Positions 13,193-45,005 of a stretch of DNA of 64,000 nucleotides are shown in pieces. The stretch comes from an uncultured Candidatus Rokubacteria bacterium (lineage in GTDB: Bacteria; Methylomirabilota; Methylomirabilia; Rokubacteriales; CSP1-6), in assembly GCA_963762145.1 (NCBI GenBank), contig CAVXJS010000009.1:800001-864000 (forward strand), read 5' to 3'. The translations under genes and the position numbers were made by a program. A model generated the notes under the pieces. The model was not told where the DNA came from and ran no database searches. It saw nothing but the letters and a program-made list of their open reading frames with translations. How positions within the stretch are numbered: position 1 is the stretch's first letter; the number at the start of each line of letters is the position of its first letter.

Positions 13193-13224
13193 CACTATTG
13201 TCCTTTGCCCCCTCGGGCGGCGTC

Positions 13225-13253
13225 ATTATGGCACATCTTTCACAAGCCGCCAA
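13225..13253 (-). promoter_or_regulatory. Putative sigma70 promoter of the lipA-nuo-pdh operon
   Basis: TTGGCG-17 bp-CATAAT with extended TG, about 30 bp upstream of the lipA start. Confidence 0.5.
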
Positions 13254-13273
13254 CCGAGGGGCCGCAGGACGCC

Positions 13274-14428
13274 CTAGCGCCCGGCCGGGATGGCCGCGTG
13301 CACGGCGTTGCTGATCACGTCCATCCGCAGGCTGTGCCACGGATCCGCCACCCGACTGTTCGTCAGGTAGGCAAACGACACGCCCGAGTCCGGGTCCGCC
13401 CAGCAGTAGGAGGACCCCACACCGCCGTGGCCGAACGTCCGCGGGGAGGCGATGCTGCCGAGCCCCCGGATGGAGTCGGTCGTCCCCCGCACGTGGGGGC
13501 CGAGCGCGCGGTGCATCGGCATGCCCATGTAGCCGTCTACCCGGTCACCCGTGACGCTCCGCGTGACGTACTGGACCAGGCGGGGCGAGAGGAGCCGCCG
13601 GCCGTCCAGCGTACCGCCGGCGGCCAGCATCTGGTAGAAGGCGGCCATCGCGCGCGCGGTGGCGTACCCGCCCCCGCCCGGCGTCCCGGCGCGGCGGAAC
13701 TCGGCGTTGTTTTCTTCCTCTCTTCTCACCTGCCCTCGGTTCCCCTGGCCGGTCCCGGTCGTGGCGGGCTCGTGCATGTCCACGGCTCGGTCGTGATGGC
13801 CGTCCGGCAGGCCCACGAAGAGCTCGTCGCCGAGCCCGAGCGGCTCGATGACCTGCTCCCGGACGAACGCCCGGTAGTCGGTCTTGCTCAGGGCTTCGAT
13901 CAGCACCGCGGCCACCCAGTGGGCAGCCCGGCTGTGGTAGTGCACCCGCGAGCCGGGCGTCCACTCGAGCGTGAAGGCCGAGACCGTCCGGCGCAGCAGC
14001 TCGTGATCCTCCCAGGCCGCCTTCGGCACGTCGGCGTTGGGAAACCCGCCCTGGTGGCTCAGGAGCTGGGTGATCGTGATGTCCCCCTTGCCGTTGGCCT
14101 CGAAGCCCGGCACGTGGTCGGCGACCCGGTCCGTGAAGCGCAGGGCTCCCTGCTCCGCGAGGATCCACACCGCGCAGGCGGTGATGACCTTCGTGTTGGA
14201 GTAGAGCAGCCAGAGGGAATCCTCGCGCGCGGGCACCCGCACGGGGTCGAGGCGCGCGTCCCCGAAGCTCCGCACCAGGGCGAGCTTGCCCTCGCGCGCC
14301 ACCGCGATCTGGGCCGCCGGGTACCGGCCTTCGGCCAGGTGCTGCGTGATCAGCTCCTGCAGGCGCTCGAGCGCACGGGCGTCGAGGCCCAGGGACGACG
14401 GGGTGGCTGCGGACAGGGGGAAGGCCAT
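13274..14428 (-). CDS. Serine hydrolase, beta-lactamase class C/EstB-like family
   Basis: SxxK (YSNTK), LLSHQGG, YHS, FGHGG motifs. Confidence 0.88.
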   Translation of the reverse strand: MAFPLSAATPSSLGLDARALERLQELITQHLAEGRYPAAQIAVAREGKLALVRSFGDARLDPVRVPAREDSLWLLYSNTKVITACAVWILAEQGALRFTDRVADHVPGFEANGKGDITITQLLSHQGGFPNADVPKAAWEDHELLRRTVSAFTLEWTPGSRVHYHSRAAHWVAAVLIEALSKTDYRAFVREQVIEPLGLGDELFVGLPDGHHDRAVDMHEPATTGTGQGNRGQVRREEENNAEFRRAGTPGGGGYATARAMAAFYQMLAAGGTLDGRRLLSPRLVQYVTRSVTGDRVDGYMGMPMHRALGPHVRGTTDSIRGLGSIASPRTFGHGGVGSSYCWADPDSGVSFAYLTNSRVADPWHSLRMDVISNAVHAAIPAGR

Positions 14429-14437
14429 GGGGTCTCC

Positions 14438-14911
14438 TTACGAGGACTGCCTCAGGGAACTGACCAGATCCACCACGCGCACCAGCTCGCTACCGTCCCG
14501 CACCATGTGCCGATCGCCCGCCTGCCCCCAGCGGAGCACGCCGTCGCGATCGATCACGAAGGTGGACCGGTAGGCCACGTTGCGGTCGGCGTCGAGCACG
14601 CCGTAGGCGGAGATGACGGTGCGGTGCACGTCGCTCAGGAGCGGAAACGGGAACGGATGGGCCTTGAGAAAGGCGGCGTGACAGAACGGGCTATCGCCGC
14701 TGATGCCCAGGAGCACGGCACCACGGCGGGCCAGCTCGGCCGCGGCCTGGCCCAGGCCGGTGAGCTCCGGGGTTCAGATCCCGCCGAAGTCATAGCAGTA
14801 GAAGCCGAGGACGACGTCGCGACCCCGATATTCCCGGAGGGACATGGGGCGCCCCTCGGTGCTGGGCAGCTCGAAGTCCGGCGCGACCTGCCCCCACCGG
14901 AGCGGCATCAT
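14438..14911 (-). CDS. Peroxiredoxin (AhpC/TSA/BCP-like), probable selenoprotein with in-frame UGA at 14774-14776
   Basis: Track ORFs 14774-15247 and 14438-14716 share a frame. Joined they read MMPLRWGQVAPDFELPSTEG..VVLGFYCYDFGGI[U]TPEL..LLGISGDSPFCH..FPLLSD..AYGV..RSTFVIDRDGVLRW. The TGA sits at the peroxidatic Cys position. Confidence 0.82.
14733..14766 (-). promoter_or_regulatory. Candidate bacterial SECIS hairpin
   Basis: AGCTC-ACC-GGCCTG-GGC-CAGGCC-GCGGCC-GAGCT starts at +8 after the UGA; G-first apical loop 21 nt downstream of the UGA. Confidence 0.6.
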
Positions 14912-14987
14912 GCCCGGGATTCTCGTGGATGCCGGCCCCCGGGTCAAGACCACCCCGTGGGCGCCCCGCGGGATTACAATTGCCGGA

Positions 14988-16052
14988 ATGAAGACTCGCG
15001 ACCTCCGGATCGAGCGCATCCAGCCCCTTCTGCCCCCGGCGATCCTGATCGAGGAGCAGCCGCTCTCCGAGAAGGGGTCGCTCATGGTCACGCGGGCGCG
15101 CGAGGAAGTGGCCGACATCCTCGCCGGCCGGAGCGACCGCCTCCTCGTGGTGGTCGGCCCGTGCTCGGTCCACGATCCGGCCGCCGCCCAGGAGTACGCG
15201 CTCCGCCTCCGCCGGCTGGCCGACGAGCTGGCGCCGGATCTCTGCATCGTGATGCGCGTCTACTTCGAGAAGCCGCGCACCACGGTGGGCTGGAAGGGGC
15301 TCATCAACGACCCGCACCTCGACGGCAGCTTCGCCATCAACGTGGGATTGCGACGGGGCCGCCGGTTCCTGCTCGATCTCGTCGACATCGGGCTGCCCGC
15401 GGGCTGCGAGTTCCTCGACCCGATCTCCCCCCAGTTCATCACCGACCTCGTGACCTGGGGCGCCATCGGGGCGCGCACGACCGAGAGTCAGGTTCATCGG
15501 GAGCTGGCCTCCGGGCTCTCGATGCCGGTCGGGTTCAAGAACGGCACCGACGGCGGGGTGCAGATCGCCATCGACGCGGTGCGGGCCGCGGCCCATCCGC
15601 ACAGCTTCCTGGGGGTCACCGAGCAGGGTCTCGCCGGCATCGTCTCCACCCGCGGCAATGTGGACTGCCACGTGATCCTGCGCGGCGGGCAGAGCGGTCC
15701 GAACTACGACGCGGCGAGCATCGGGGAGGTGCTCGCCGCCCTCCGCGCCGCGGGGGTGCCGCCCCGGCTGATGATCGACACGAGCCACGGGAACAGCGAG
15801 AAGGACTACCGACGTCAGCCCCAGGTCGCGCGGGAGATTGCGGCCCAGGTCGCCCGGGGGGAGCGGGGAATCGTCGGTGTACTGATGGAGAGCTTCCTGG
15901 TCGACGGGCGTCAGGATCTCGCGGATCCCGCGCAGCTCGTCTATGGCCAGAGCATCACCGACGCCTGCATGGGCTGGGACATGACGGTGCCGGTCCTCCG
16001 GGAGCTGGCCGCCGCGGCGCGCGAGCGCCGCGTGGACGGCCGCTCCACCTGA
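14988..16052 (+). CDS. 3-deoxy-7-phosphoheptulonate (DAHP) synthase, class I-alpha (AroG/F/H type)
   Basis: GPCSVHD, MRVYFEKPRTTVGWKG, IGARTTESQVHR, GFKNGTDG, SHGNS, SITDAC; start MKTRDLRI. Confidence 0.95.
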   Translation: MKTRDLRIERIQPLLPPAILIEEQPLSEKGSLMVTRAREEVADILAGRSDRLLVVVGPCSVHDPAAAQEYALRLRRLADELAPDLCIVMRVYFEKPRTTVGWKGLINDPHLDGSFAINVGLRRGRRFLLDLVDIGLPAGCEFLDPISPQFITDLVTWGAIGARTTESQVHRELASGLSMPVGFKNGTDGGVQIAIDAVRAAAHPHSFLGVTEQGLAGIVSTRGNVDCHVILRGGQSGPNYDAASIGEVLAALRAAGVPPRLMIDTSHGNSEKDYRRQPQVAREIAAQVARGERGIVGVLMESFLVDGRQDLADPAQLVYGQSITDACMGWDMTVPVLRELAAAARERRVDGRST

Positions 16053-16064
16053 AAGGTCGGTCCG

Positions 16065-16775
16065 ATGGACTACCATCCGTTCAAGGCCCGCCTGAACCGC
16101 TTCATGCTCCGCTACGTGGGCGGCGACCGGCGCCCCGCGTTCTTCGAGGTGAACGATGCCTATCCCTCGCTCGGGCACGTCACACGTGCGTACCCGGCGA
16201 TCCGCGAGGAGTGTGCGCAGCTCCTCGCCCGCCGCGAGAAGCTCCCGCGCTATCACGAGATCGACCCGGGAGAGCGGGCGATCTCGAGCGTCGACTCGGA
16301 TCGCCACTGGTACGTGTTCATGCTCTATATCCTGGGTCACAAGCCCGAGGCCAATCGCGCGCTCTGCCCGGCCACGTGCGAGGCGCTCGCCCGGGTCCCG
16401 AACCTGGTCCAGGCGTTCTTCTCCATACTGGACGCCGGCAAACGGGTCCCCCGCCACGAGGGCCCCTACCTCGGGTACCTGCGCTATCACCTCGGGCTGC
16501 ATGTCCCGCAGGATGACCCACCCCGGTTAGTCGTGAACTCGCAGGAGTACGTCTGGAAGGCGGGGCAGGCCATCATGTTCGATGACTCGTGGCCGCACGA
16601 AGTCATCAACGAGAGCCGCGAGCCGCGCGTCGTGCTGATCGTGGACGTGCTCCGACCGCTGCCCCTCCTGCCGTCTCTGGTCAACCGGCTCGTGATGCAC
16701 GGCCTCGCGCGCCCGACCTACGGTCGGTCGGTCGCGCGGCGTGTCGCCCGCTCGACCTTCATCAGTACCGGCTGA
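16065..16775 (+). CDS. Aspartyl/asparaginyl beta-hydroxylase family Fe(II)/2OG dioxygenase (LpxO-related family)
   Basis: AFFSILDAGKRVPRHEGPY, LRYHLGL, FDDSWPHEV, RVVLIVD. Confidence 0.85.
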   Translation: MDYHPFKARLNRFMLRYVGGDRRPAFFEVNDAYPSLGHVTRAYPAIREECAQLLARREKLPRYHEIDPGERAISSVDSDRHWYVFMLYILGHKPEANRALCPATCEALARVPNLVQAFFSILDAGKRVPRHEGPYLGYLRYHLGLHVPQDDPPRLVVNSQEYVWKAGQAIMFDDSWPHEVINESREPRVVLIVDVLRPLPLLPSLVNRLVMHGLARPTYGRSVARRVARSTFISTG

Positions 16776-16999
16776 CGAGCGGCGGACGCAGGGCGGTGGT
16801 CCCGGAGGCCCGCAACCGACCACAATCTGCCCTCCGCGGGCCGCCGAGTGGGCGCGCGCCGCGGTGTGATGGTAGGATCAACCGCGGTGTGCTGGCTTGA
16901 CCCCAGGCCGCCTCTGGACTTCCGGAGGTCGCCCGACCACGACCCGCGAGAAGCCGCAGACGCCGCCGGCTCCGCCGGGGCTCCGGAGGAAGAGACAGG

Positions 17000-18039
17000 A
17001 TGGCCGACCCTCGGTTCTTCACGGTCGCCGGACCGTTCAGCGTGAGTCGGCTCGCCGAGATCGCCGGCGCCCGCCCGGCCCCGGGAAGCGACCCCGACCG
17101 CCTGATCGAGGACGTGGCGCCGCTGGACGCCGCCGGGCCGGCGCATGTGAGCTTCCTCGACAACCGCCGCTACGTAGCCGCCTTCGCGGCCAGCCGCGCC
17201 GGGGCCTGCGTGGTGCAGCCGGACCTCGCGGCCAGGGCTCCCGCCGGGATGGCGCTGCTGCTCACCGAGGAGCCCTATCGGGCCTATGCTCGCATCGCGC
17301 AGGCGTTCTACCCGGTGATGGCGCCCGAGGCCGGCGTCTCCCCGTCGGCCATCGTCGACCCCACCGCGCGCCTGGCGCCGAGCTGCCGGATCGAGCCCGG
17401 AGCGGTGGTCGGCGCGCGGGCGGAAATCGGCGCACGGACGGTGATCGGCGCGACCGCCGCGATCGCTCCCGGTGTCGTGATCGGCGAGGACTGCATCGTC
17501 GGCGCGGGAGCGACCATCTCGCACAGCCTGATCGGCAACCGCGTCGCCATCTATCCCGGCGCGCGCATCGGCCAGGACGGCTTCGGCTTCGCCATGGGAG
17601 CCGGCGGTCACCTCAAGGTGCCGCAGCTCGGCCGCGTCATCGTCGAGGACGACGTCGAGATCGGCGCCAATACCACGATCGACCGCGGCGCCGGGCCCGA
17701 CACCGTGATCGGAGCCGGCACCAAGATCGACAACCTCGTGCAGATCGGGCACAACGTTCGGCTCGGGGCGGGCTGCGTCCTCGTCGCCCAGGTGGGCATC
17801 TCCGGAAGCACGCACCTGGGCGCGTTCGTCGCGGCGGGCGGTCAGGTCGGCATCACCGGCCACCTGCAGATCGGCGCGGGCGCCCGCCTCGCGGCCCAGA
17901 GCGGGGTGATGCGGGACATCGAGCCCGGCGGGACCGTCGCCGGACTCGCCCGCGATGCCGGCCAAGGAGTTCTGGCGGCAATGCGCCGCGCTGGGCCAGA
18001 CTCGCCCGGCGCCGCGTGAGGAGCCGCGTGACGGCATGA
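17000..18039 (+). CDS. lpxD: UDP-3-O-acylglucosamine N-acyltransferase (apparent frameshift near the 3' end)
   Basis: [46 protein letters not shown] hexapeptide repeats. Confidence 0.9.
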
Positions 18040-18042
18040 GCC

Positions 18043-18844
18043 GTGACCGTCCATCCCACCGCGGTGGTCGAGCCGGGCGCGAAGCTGGGTGAAGGCGTCG
18101 CGATCGGGCCGTACTGCGTGGTCGGCGGCGACGTCAATCTCGGCGACGGCGTCACCCTCGTCTCCCACGCGGTGGTCGCGGGCCATACCGAGATCGGGGC
18201 GGGCACGCGGATCTTCCCCTTCGCGTCCGATCGGGCACCAGCCCCAGGACCTCAAGTACCAGGGCGAGCCGTCCCGGCTGATCATCGGCCGTGACAACAC
18301 GATCCGCGAGTACGTGACCATGAATCCCGGGACCAAGGGCGGCAACATGGCGACGCGCGTCGGCGACGGCGGCTTGTTCATGGCCGGCACCCACGTCGCG
18401 CACGACTGCACGATCGGCGACGGCGTGATCATGGCCAACAACGCGACGCTCGCCGGGCACGTGACGATCGGCGACCACGCGGTGCTGGGCGGCCTGTGCG
18501 CGGTGCACCAGTTCGTGCGCATCGGCACGCTGGCGATGGTCGGCGGCCTGTCCGGCGTCGAGTTCGACGTGATCCCCTACGGCTCGGTGATCGGCAACCG
18601 CGCGTGGCTGGCTGGGTTGAACCTCGTGGGCCTGCGGCGCCGCGGCGTCGCGCGCGAGGACATCCACGCGCTGCGCCGCGCGTACCAGGAGCTGTTCGCG
18701 CCGGAAGGCACGATGGGCGAGCGACTCGAGCGCGTCGCCGAGCAGTACCGCGACTCGCCCCAAGTCGCCGAGGTGGTGGCGTTCATGCGGGCCCGATCGC
18801 AGCGGGGCATCTGCCAGGCGAAGCTGGAGGACGGGGCCGACTAA
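18043..18844 (+). CDS. lpxA: UDP-N-acetylglucosamine acyltransferase (apparent frameshift ~18230)
   Basis: [19 protein letters not shown] in one frame; [29 protein letters not shown] in the next. Confidence 0.88.
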
Positions 18845-18880
18845 TCGGCCGGGAGCCGGCCGGGAGACCGCGGCCCGGCG

Positions 18881-20087
18881 ATGCCTCACCGAAGCACCGA
18901 TTCCGGGTCGCCCCTCTGATCTACGCCGGCCCCTCTTCGTGGCCGGCGAGCCCTCCGGGGACCTCGTCGGCGCGCACCTGATGCGGGCGCTGCGCAGGAG
19001 ACGGGGCGGGCCGTGTCCGCTTCGCCGGCGTGGGCGGCGAGCAGATGGGCGAGGAGGGCTTGCGGAGCCTCTTTCCGCTCGCCGACATCGCGGTCATGGG
19101 GCTCCTCGAGGTGCTGCCGAAGGCGCCCCTGGGGCTGCGGCGAGTGCGCGAGACGGCGCCGACATCGAGCGGCAGCGGCCCGCGGCGCTGGTGAGCATCG
19201 ACTCGTGGGGCTTCAGCGGGCGTGTGGCCAAGCGCCTGAAGGCGGCGGGCTCCCGGACGCCGCGCATCCACTACGTCGCGCCGATGGTCTGGGCCTGGCG
19301 GCCGGGCCGCGCCCGCGTGCTCGCGCGGCTGCTCGATCACCTCCTGTGCCTGCTGCCGAACGAGCCCGCGTACTTCGAGGCGGTGGGCCTCGGCGCAACC
19401 CACGTCGGCCACCCGGTGATCGAGAGCGGTGCCGAGCGCGGCGACGGCGCCGGGTTCCGGCGCCGCCACGGGATCGACGGCCGAGTGCGCCGCTTCTCTG
19501 CCTGCTGCCCGGGAGCCGGGCCGGCGAGGTCGCTCGCCTCCTGCCGATCTTCGGGGAGCCCATTCGTCGGCTGCGGCCGAGTACCCCGGCCTGCGCGTGG
19601 TGATCCCGACCGTCGACATCGTCGCCGCGCAGGTGGGGCGCGCGGCCGCCGGCTCGACGGCGTCGTCGTGCGCGGGCGGCGGAGAAGTACGACGCGTTCG
19701 CCGCCGCGGACGTCGCGCTCGCCGCTTCGGGTACGGTGGCGGTGGAGCTGGCTCTGGCCGGAGTGCCCGCGGTCATCACCTACCGCGTGGCTCCCCTCAC
19801 CGCCGCGATCGCCCGACGCCTGCTCAAGATCCGGTACGTGAGCCTGGTCAACATCGTGCTCGATCGGCCGGCCGTGCCGGAGCTGCTTCAGGAGCACTGC
19901 CGTCCGGAGCGGCTCGTCGAGGCGGTGTCGACGCTCGCTCACGGACCCGGCCGCGCGGGAGACCCAGCGCGCGGCGGGACGCGAGGCGTTGGCCCGCCTG
20001 GGCTACGGGGGACCGCCACCGAGCGCGCGCGCGGCGCGGATCATCCTCGACCTGGTAGCGCGGCAGGCGGCCGGTCGGTCAGCGTGA
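18881..20087 (+). CDS. lpxB: Lipid-A-disaccharide synthase (several apparent frameshifts)
   Basis: AGEPSGD, IDSWGF, HYVAPMVWAWR, VGHP, LLPGSR, ASGTVAVELALAGVP, SLVNI, PELLQ spread over frames. Confidence 0.85.
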
Positions 20088-20112
20088 TCGTCGCAACGGA
20101 TCGTTCTGCTGT

Positions 20113-20133
20113 TCAGTGGTGCCGAAGGGGGGA
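20113..20133 (-). repeat. att site: duplicated tRNA-Leu 3' end
   Basis: Identical to 44917-44937; extends to 25 bp with one mismatch. Confidence 0.88.
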
Positions 20134-20262
20134 TTCGTTCGGGCCGCCCTTCGGCACATCCAGCCATGCGCCGGATTTTCGTGGATTCTGCTCGATGCGT
20201 CAAGCACTTCCGCGGTTCAGGTGGTTTATACCGGGTGACACGGACTGACCCTGTTTGAGACC

Positions 20263-43724: not shown

Positions 43725-44891
43725 TGGCGGTCAAGCGCACACGGACGGGCTATCAGCTCTGGTGGTATGACAGCGACGGGCGGTTCAGAAAGCGCACCTT
43801 CCGGGGGATCGGCCGGGACGAAGCCGTCCGCATCGAGCGGAAATCCTCGCCGCGCGCGATCGGGGCGAGCGCCCGCCGGATGAGCGACACGCGCCGTCCT
43901 TTGCCGCCTTCGCCGCGGCGTGGCTCGACGAGTGCCGCTCCGGATGGAAGGCGCCGACGCTGGCCCAGTATCAGCAGATCCTGAAGTCGCAGCTCCTGCC
44001 CGTCGTCGGGCGCTCCGGGTGAGCGCGATCACGGAATCGCGAATCCGTCAGCGATCACGGGCTGCGCGATACCGGACTGTCCGCGCGCCGCACCAACCTC
44101 ACGCTGCTCGTGCTCAAGATGATCCTGCGCACGGCGCTGCGCCGGCGCTACCTCCGCGACGACCCGACCGAGACCATCCGCTCGCTGCGGGAGCCCCGGA
44201 CGGAGGTCGATCCGCTCGACCCGGACGAGGTGACCGCCTTTCTGGCGGCGTGCCCGGCCTGGTGGCGGCCGTACTTCACGGTCGCCTTCTCAGGGGCCCG
44301 GCAGAACGAACTGGCGGCGCTGCGATGGGGCGACGTCGACGGGGGCCGTGGCGTCGTCCGCATCCGGCGCGGGCCGCTATCGCGGGAAGGAGGGCCCCCC
44401 CAAAACGGCCACAGCGTGCGGGATATCAACCTGTCGCCGCCCGTGCTCGACGCCCTCAAGGCCCAGAAGGCGCAGCAGGCGGCTGAGCGGCTCAAAGCCG
44501 GCCGGGGAGCGCCCGAGCCGGGCCAGGATTACGTGTTCACGGGGCCGGAAAGCGGCCTGCTGAACGTGAACGCCCTCCGAGACCGGACCTGGTACCCGAC
44601 ACTCACCCAGGCGGGCCTGCGCCGCCGCATCATGTACCAGACCCGGCACACCTTCGCGTCGAACGCCCTGGCCGCGGGCAAAGCGCCGTCGTGGGTGGCC
44701 GCGATGCTCGGGCATGCGAGCCCCGAGATGCTCTTCCGCGTGTACGCGCGCTACATCCCGAACCGGACCGCCGCGACGGCAGCGCGCTGCTGAGCCGGAT
44801 GACGGAGCGGAAGGACGCGGGACGCAACCGAGGTCGCGGGCGCTGCCGTACTCCCGAAATACTCCCGGTGAGACCGCGCGCTTCCGGGTAG
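43724..44891 (+). CDS. Tyrosine recombinase/phage integrase (frameshifted; 3' end 44793 or 44891)
   Basis: N-terminal arm-binding-like YQLWWYDSDGRFRKRTF; GARQNEL, YQTRHTFAS, MLGH, YARY catalytic motifs. Confidence 0.88.
44849..44867. promoter_or_regulatory. Putative integrase arm-type sites (right end)
   Basis: Tandem tactcccg-aaa-tactcccg about 50 bp inside the att core. Confidence 0.55.

Positions 44892-44920: not shown

Positions 44921-45005
<85 letters not shown>

Follow-up and report, generated by a model that had tools for sequence, protein, structure and literature searches.

The locus raises the question of whether two neighboring open reading frames on the minus strand of an uncultured Candidatus Rokubacteria bacterium are separate genes or one selenoprotein gene read through a UGA codon for selenocysteine (Sec), and what reaction such a protein would catalyze. 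The window (the whole stretch of DNA analyzed, 64,000 nucleotides) contains at 14438–14911 (minus strand) a gene for a protein of peroxiredoxin (Prx) fold, with 157 codons from an ATG at 14911 to a TAA at 14440–14438. Its sole in-frame TGA (14776–14774, codon 46) lies within FYCYDFGGI*TPEL, and the table-11 ORF listing breaks the gene there into 14774–15247 and 14438–14716. A first, sequence-only reading had proposed a single frame broken only by this TGA, which was confirmed. The read-through protein matches Pfam AhpC-TSA (PF00578) with 123.7 bits over residues 7–128, spanning the TGA. The predicted Sec46 (14774–14776, minus strand) falls in the column of the peroxidatic Cys, where Prx2 and 2ywn have their catalytic Cys.

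The protein databases hold the gene mostly in pieces. Among the best 120 of 1,154 matches, 109 were C-terminal halves starting at query residues 49–70, scattered over this range with no common restart, and all 44 short N-terminal matches stopped at residue 45. The remaining 11 longer matches of these best 120 carried Trp (8), Leu (1) or a deletion (1) at the Sec column, or had an unrelated N-terminus (1); none had Cys at this position.

One scan of a species-level genome collection confirmed 171 relatives, of which the best 80 (64–96% identity) were compared; Rokubacteria, Rokuibacteriota or Methylomirabilota(-ia) is named in 66 of these 80 record titles. The sequence-only reading had proposed inspecting homologues for Cys or TGA at this column, and TGA was present in 80/80 of these loci (best 80 of 171), while TAA, TAG, TGG or TGY occurred in none. 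The terminal stops of the same 80 genes varied (TGA 43, TAA 21, TAG 16). Since TGA terminates the gene in 43 of 80 loci while the internal TGA is invariant, TGA still acts as a stop and only the internal one is frozen. Judged from this alignment, the internal TGA is to be read as a conserved codon rather than a lesion. Compared with the 10 closest loci, dN/dS was 0.17 upstream of the TGA, 0.09 downstream of it, and 0.05 over the 19 codons that follow it; compared with all 80 loci, the values were 0.32, 0.23 and 0.33, respectively. These ratios point to purifying selection on both halves of the gene, and the conserved in-frame UGA is flanked by coding conservation on both sides (dN/dS 0.05–0.33).

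Some relatives deviated from this pattern or carried unexpected names. Locus L013 (9960–10140) has an N-terminal frameshift in the selenoprotein gene and was for this reason omitted from the TGA-type alignment, and database protein P0003, whose N-terminus is very similar to that of L013, carries Leu in place of the Sec; sequencing errors or a rare loss would account for both. Six loci (L003, L004, L007, L010, L016, and L019) are titled as unrelated taxa (Acidoferrum, Limnocylindria, Verrucomicrobiia, Nitrosocosmicus, and others), and their genes nonetheless fall within the Rokubacteria clade; these are probably mislabelled metagenome-assembled genomes (MAGs). As L003 and L004 are about 90% identical to, and collinear with, the window, several of the 14 loci without Rokubacteria or Methylomirabilota titles are probably mislabelled.

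Bacterial Sec insertion uses the UGA and a SECIS element immediately downstream of it. A bacterial SECIS-type hairpin was located at 14743–14759 (minus strand), beginning 21 nt past the UGA, with a 7-bp stem (strands 14759–14753 and 14749–14743) and a 3-nt loop, GGC, at 14752–14750. Counted from the UGA, the stem pairs +15 to +21 with +25 to +31, and the first G of the loop is 14752. Folding of the single sequence (70% GC) gave z-scores of −1.38 to +0.41 in five of five folds, and alternative folds competed with the hairpin. The hairpin suggested by the sequence-only reading was thus right in its G-first loop and its distance of 21 nt, but taken alone it is not above chance. As single-sequence folding was unsupportive, comparative tests were used instead, and the hairpin is significant only by comparison.

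In 81 ungapped sequences, RNAalifold returned one 7-bp stem with a 3-nt loop as the consensus. The stem was paired in 98.2% of 567 cells. Column shuffles gave 91.1%, with none of 500 reaching the observed value, and controls in which the stem was slid along the alignment gave 12.7–44.8%. This stem ranked first among the 3,143 candidate 7-bp stems that the gene alignment allows; the runner-up independent of it reached 87.7%. Three stem pairs showed two-sided, compensatory changes. At pair +17/+29, GC (37), AU (31), and GU (13) occurred and A-C never (76 of 160,000 independent pairs in a tree simulation), and at pair +21/+25 a change from GC (57) to CG (17) ties a synonymous position in a Leu codon to a switch between Gln and Glu (1 of 160,000 simulated). 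A cruder same-branch co-change metric ranked these two pairs only 14,206 and 190 of 33,451, and in 494 of the 33,451 variable column pairs composition gives a complementarity of at least 90% anyway; both observations count against the covariation case. The third codon positions +18, +27, and +30 were invariant in 81/81 sequences, the only other invariant third positions among 153 codon columns being those of the TGA, Trp128, and Met136, and pS was 0.18 within the stem versus about 0.5 elsewhere.

The first loop base was G in 81/81 sequences and the second G or U in 76/81; the minimum free energy (MFE) was −11.2 for the hairpin of the window and at or below −7.5 kcal/mol in 78/81. Published constraints for bacterial SECIS elements are a loop of 3–9 nt, a stem of 4–16 bp, G in loop positions 1–2, a spacing of 16–37 nt and an MFE of at most −7.5 (PMC13188914), and the values found here (loop 3, stem 7, G in 81/81, spacing 21, MFE −11.2) lie within all of them. 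The 3-nt loop, 7-bp stem, loop-first G and 21-nt spacing also agree with the bSECISearch consensus; in contrast to that consensus, a conserved lower stem is not present here (PMC13188914). No lower stem was recovered from the alignment of 81 sequences, whose consensus is the 7-bp hairpin only. By its conservation and covariation, the hairpin is best read as a bacterial SECIS.

The genes needed for Sec insertion were sought in the window and the flanks of the 80 loci. No selA, selB, selC or selD was found in these 1.28 Mb, and neither was tRNA-Sec by ARAGORN; Rfam returned only a tRNA-Leu, and no tRNA-Sec, in the window. A scan for SelA, SelB, SelD, and SelU with short motifs, crude and of low sensitivity, found nothing in the window and flanks. 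This absence counts against the selenoprotein reading; sel genes need not be linked to selenoprotein genes. No second convincing selenoprotein was found among 167 coding-like in-frame TGA sites in the window and flanks; these sites were rejected as selenoproteins, the hits looking like gene-boundary stops or non-coding frames. Sec use is on record elsewhere in the phylum: one cited Methylomirabilota MAG has 63 genes predicted to encode selenoproteins (PMC13188914), and Methylomirabilia MAGs with SelA, SelB, SelD, and tRNA-Sec are tabulated in a supplement, where they are placed in Methylomirabilales or left unplaced, not in Rokubacteriales (PMC13582414).

Taken together, the gene very probably encodes a real selenoprotein. 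With nearly the same assurance, we consider the product to be a single 157-aa selenoprotein of a Prx subfamily centered on Rokubacteria and Methylomirabilota, with Sec delivered by SelB. By analogy with established bacterial recoding, SelB would, with comparably high likelihood, bind the G-loop hairpin and Sec would enter at position 46. The proposal of the sequence-only reading, a 157-aa selenoprotein split by annotation pipelines, is well supported by the TGA in 80/80 loci, the covarying stem and the halves in the databases.

Transcription signals and neighboring genes were examined in the same loci. A sigma70-like promoter, TTGACC-17-GAGAAT (14919–14947, minus strand), ends 7 nt before the selenoprotein ATG; two such promoters were found in the window (14919–14947 and 13225–13253, both minus strand) versus 0.1 expected. 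The same −35/−10/7-nt/start spacing is repeated in L001–L005, L009, L011, L012, L063, and L073. Because the promoter lies 7 nt from the ATG and this spacing is recurrent, the selenoprotein mRNA is probably leaderless, which also supports the start codon. A gene for a beta-lactamase-family serine hydrolase (13274–14428, minus strand) begins 9 nt past the selenoprotein stop and is probably co-transcribed with it; it was present within the flank in 29/80 loci, adjacent in 13 and about 4.7 kb away in 16. The second promoter lies just upstream of lipA, which was within the flank in 13/80 loci, lipA/nuo occurring only in the closest 9–13. In about 19 loci (L069:10497–12800, L044:10497–11432, and related ones) an ATPase-looking ORF, which we take to be MoxR-like, and a 441-aa ORF lie downstream in place of the hydrolase.

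The surrounding DNA carries further features. A 1,103-aa ORF on the plus strand (13205–16516), antisense to and overlapping the hydrolase, selenoprotein, and DAHP synthase genes, is probably a GC-rich shadow frame. The sequence-only reading had regarded the surroundings as free of other lesions; this holds for the immediate neighbors (serine hydrolase, lipA, and DAHP synthase), but 2–5 kb away homologues of lpxD, lpxA, and lpxB are each apparently frameshifted into overlapping ORF pieces. Together with an Asp/Asn beta-hydroxylase, they lie on an insert (16065–20250) that is absent from the equivalent position in close relatives. This second insert lies outside the att repeat of a genomic island (20113–44937), which is integrated at a tRNA-Leu(GAG) (44921–45005, minus strand) and contains a phage-type integrase (44110–44793), a 21-bp direct repeat of the tRNA 3′ end (20113–20133), and glycosyltransferase, ABC, and IS91-like cargo. 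In the close relatives L001–L004 and L009, 16.03 kb is joined directly to the tRNA region.

The active site of the predicted protein departs from that of known Prx. These enzymes are defined by the motif Pxxx(T/S)xxC and a distant Arg (PMC8945050, PMC3337327), and the motif of Sec-containing Prx (Sec-Prx) has been given as PxxxTxxU (PMC13188914), T/SxxU/C (PMC1794560) or TXXU (PMC1088965). The 81 sequences share C-[YF]-D-[FW]-G-x-I-U, i.e., CxxxGxxU. Cys39 (14795–14797, minus strand) stands at the signature Pro site, which is Pro in the aligned Prx structures, and is Cys in 81/81 sequences; Gly43 (14783–14785, minus strand) stands at the Thr/Ser site and is Gly in 81/81. The canonical Pxxx(T/S)xxC/U motif as defined in PMC8945050 is therefore lacking in every sequence. 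Of the Prx motif that the sequence-only reading had aligned here, the TGA at the peroxidatic Cys stands, while Pro and Thr do not. Arg115 (14567–14569, minus strand), which corresponds to the conserved catalytic Arg of Prx, aligns with the Arg of AYRGLF in Prx2 and is present in 81/81 sequences, a count partly selected for, as the residue lies within the scan pattern RNVA[YW]RSTF; it is also invariant in 30 Cys-type outgroup rows. Glu49, following the Sec, is likewise retained. A second Cys, Cys77 (14681–14683, minus strand), is Cys in 65, Ser in 15, and Val in 1 of 81 sequences; judged by this replacement in 16/81, it is unlikely to be essential and would be a weaker resolving candidate than Cys39.

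An AlphaFold2 model built from a 110-row alignment reached a mean pLDDT of 93 and placed residue 46 where a helix begins; it superseded a first model (pLDDT 75.7) whose alignment held mostly C-terminal halves. VIA-align matched the model to AhpE (5id2) with Z 24.2, an rmsd of 1.7 Å over 151 residues and 34% identity, with Prx6 (6q5v), PRDX4, and PRDX3 tied within 1 Z. The product thus has the AhpC/TSA domain, the Prx fold and the catalytic Arg, and true Prx (Z 22–24) are its closest folds, followed by DsbE/ResA-type proteins at Z up to 18. In a quick tree of 58 rows (28 of the 80 TGA-type and 30 Cys-type), a long branch (0.86, SH-aLRT 100) separates the TGA clade from the other rows, and the W128–R138 region contains invariant residues specific to the family.

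Outside this clade, the UGA column is Cys in 53 of the 61 representative rows that cover it (distant, 30–43% identity), and these nearest Cys-type representatives are mostly canonical, with P-T/S-C in 39/61. Within the clade, no Cys-type member was found among the best 120 of 1,154 database matches or among three in the region search (which had only 4 candidates), and the family motif occurred in 0 of 150 representatives. One protein, P0164, was considered as a Cys-type member and rejected; it has a CxxC-type domain with C/G/C at these columns and lies outside the clade.

From these features a catalytic cycle can be proposed. The gene would be transcribed from its own promoter, probably as a leaderless mRNA, and SelB on the G-loop hairpin 21 nt 3′ of UGA46 would deliver Sec-tRNA-Sec. 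Sec46, at the N-terminus of helix 2 in the modelled Prx fold, would be the attacking selenolate, assisted by Arg115, and a hydroperoxide would oxidize it to the selenenic acid. Cys39, which takes the place of Pro in the active-site loop, would resolve the selenenic acid as an intramolecular Se-S bond, which a thioredoxin-type or small-thiol system would then re-reduce. The Pro normally found at this loop position shields the catalytic atom, and the higher intrinsic reactivity of a selenolate may have made the Thr dispensable. We lean slightly towards a hydroperoxide reductase/peroxidase as the function of the protein, and more tentatively suggest Cys39 as the resolving residue. The substitution of Pro and Thr, two of the four signature residues, casts doubt on peroxidase activity.

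As the main rival on function, the selenoprotein might instead have no peroxidase role, with Cys39 and Sec46 acting as a redox pair on disulfide, sulfoxide, N-oxide or metal(loid) species, a reading that we hold to be possible but somewhat doubtful. The replacement of the Pro and Thr of the Prx peroxide-binding site (PMC8945050, PMC3337327) in 81/81 sequences speaks for it, as do the long branch and the family-specific residues described above; the retained catalytic Arg and Glu49, and the greater structural likeness to true Prx than to DsbE/ResA-type proteins, speak against it. A conserved redox partner gene that would hint at another substrate was not found in the neighborhoods of the 80 loci, which vary, and gene context does not decide between a peroxidase and an enzyme for another substrate.

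SECIS-dependent read-through could place Cys rather than Sec via tRNA-ReC (SelC*), which reads UGA as Cys when a SECIS lies downstream and whose GCA form is listed for one Methylomirabilia MAG in the supplement of that study (PMC13582414). The same MAG, however, also has two tRNA-Sec entries and SelABD (PMC13582414), and TGY revertants, expected if Cys sufficed, are the codons seen in 0/80 loci (best 80 of 171), making this route improbable. More improbable still is that the TGA is a true stop, in a split gene with two polypeptides or in a pseudogene. Public gene-caller annotation does show two halves, and the L013 frameshift and the Leu of P0003 would fit; but, unlike at the terminal stop, TAA or TAG never replaces the internal TGA (80/80), purifying selection acts on the codons from the TGA to the predicted restart, the predicted restarts themselves are scattered, and a stop would remove the catalytic residue itself. 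That TGA has been reassigned to Trp or Gly throughout the genome (tables 4/25), as the Trp at the column in 8 full-length database proteins might suggest, is effectively refuted, as TGA terminates the selenoprotein gene itself in 43/80 loci and, in the window, is also the stop of nuoH, with the next ATG following directly, and in 5 of the 8 Trp proteins (P0005, P0006, and P0008–P0010) another Trp follows at the position where L077 and L031 end in TGA, which points to code-4 gene calling and not to a real TGG.

With Sec at position 46 as the preferred reading, the family can be placed among known systems. It shares the AhpC/TSA domain (PF00578), the peroxidatic UGA, the Arg and a bacterial SECIS in the coding region with Sec-Prx (TxxU; PMC13188914, PMC1088965; NF040737, peroxi_PrxU), a class for which 43 genes have been reported (PMC1088965). 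It differs from their PxxxTxxU (PMC13188914) in its CxxxGxxU, and from the PrxU profile in length (157 aa versus 233 positions), scoring 74 bits against a cut-off of 270. Size and fold agree with those of AhpE-type 1-Cys Prx (Mycobacterium tuberculosis AhpE, 5id2/1xvw) and archaeal BCP/PrxQ (2ywn, 2cx3), and a C-terminal arm with a resolving Cys is absent in both cases; unlike these, the family has Sec for Cys, Cys for Pro, Gly for Thr, and an extra invariant Cys in the active-site loop. Other redox selenoproteins of thioredoxin/Prx fold, mostly found computationally as well, are the Prx-like UxxC/UxxU, AhpC/TSA UxxS (SelL-related, NF040769), Prx-SUH CxxU (NF045827), and TsoC GxxU (NF045708) subfamilies, from which it differs in Sec position or motif. 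It scored 18.3 bits against NF040769 (cut-off 120), NF045827 and NF045708 were absent from its 13 NCBIfam matches (E ≤ 0.01), and no NCBIfam model, PrxU, SelL-related, and Prx-SUH included, was matched above its cut-off.

No Prx-type family with CxxxGxxU appears in the accessible part of a 119-entry inventory of 2026 (PMC13188914), and nothing on Prx or Rokubacteria was found in the accessible part of deep-Sep (PMC12013277) or in the main text and one supplement of BSepDB (PMC13326102). In the literature searched on Rokubacteria/Methylomirabilota selenoproteins and on non-canonical Sec-Prx the family is undescribed; Haft and Tolstoy 2025 and Deng et al. 2026, with their supplements, may list it, and members may already be among the generic "Prx" calls of selenoprotein-prediction tools. 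Both Sec-Prx and the use of Sec in Methylomirabilota are already known; what is new is the invariant rewired active site and the apparent lack of a Cys form. The most fitting place for the family is as a new subfamily within the known Sec-Prx class, one that passes the selenoprotein-gene criteria examined and fails the canonical Prx motif.

The finding corrects a systematic mis-annotation, hundreds of database entries being half-proteins of one gene family, and adds independent covariation-level evidence for UGA recoding in Rokubacteria-type bacteria. It also shows the SECIS constraining the protein: Gly/Asp52 varies with Ala/Val56 and the Leu53 codon with Gln/Glu55, a clean example of amino-acid covariation driven by RNA structure. 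For the Prx mechanism it offers a natural test, as all members seen lack the "universal" Pro and Thr, a change confined to the Sec form; whether Pro and Thr can be spared when selenium is present, and whether Cys39 represents a resolving residue of a new kind, are testable questions. The complete picture, of a Sec-only, lineage-wide Prx-fold selenoenzyme of Rokubacteria with CxxxGxxU, a Cys39-Sec selenenylsulfide and no Thr, hidden in databases as halves, is put forward tentatively. If true, it would mean either a peroxidase without the Thr/Pro pocket, selenium compensating for it, or a Prx scaffold turned to another redox reaction.
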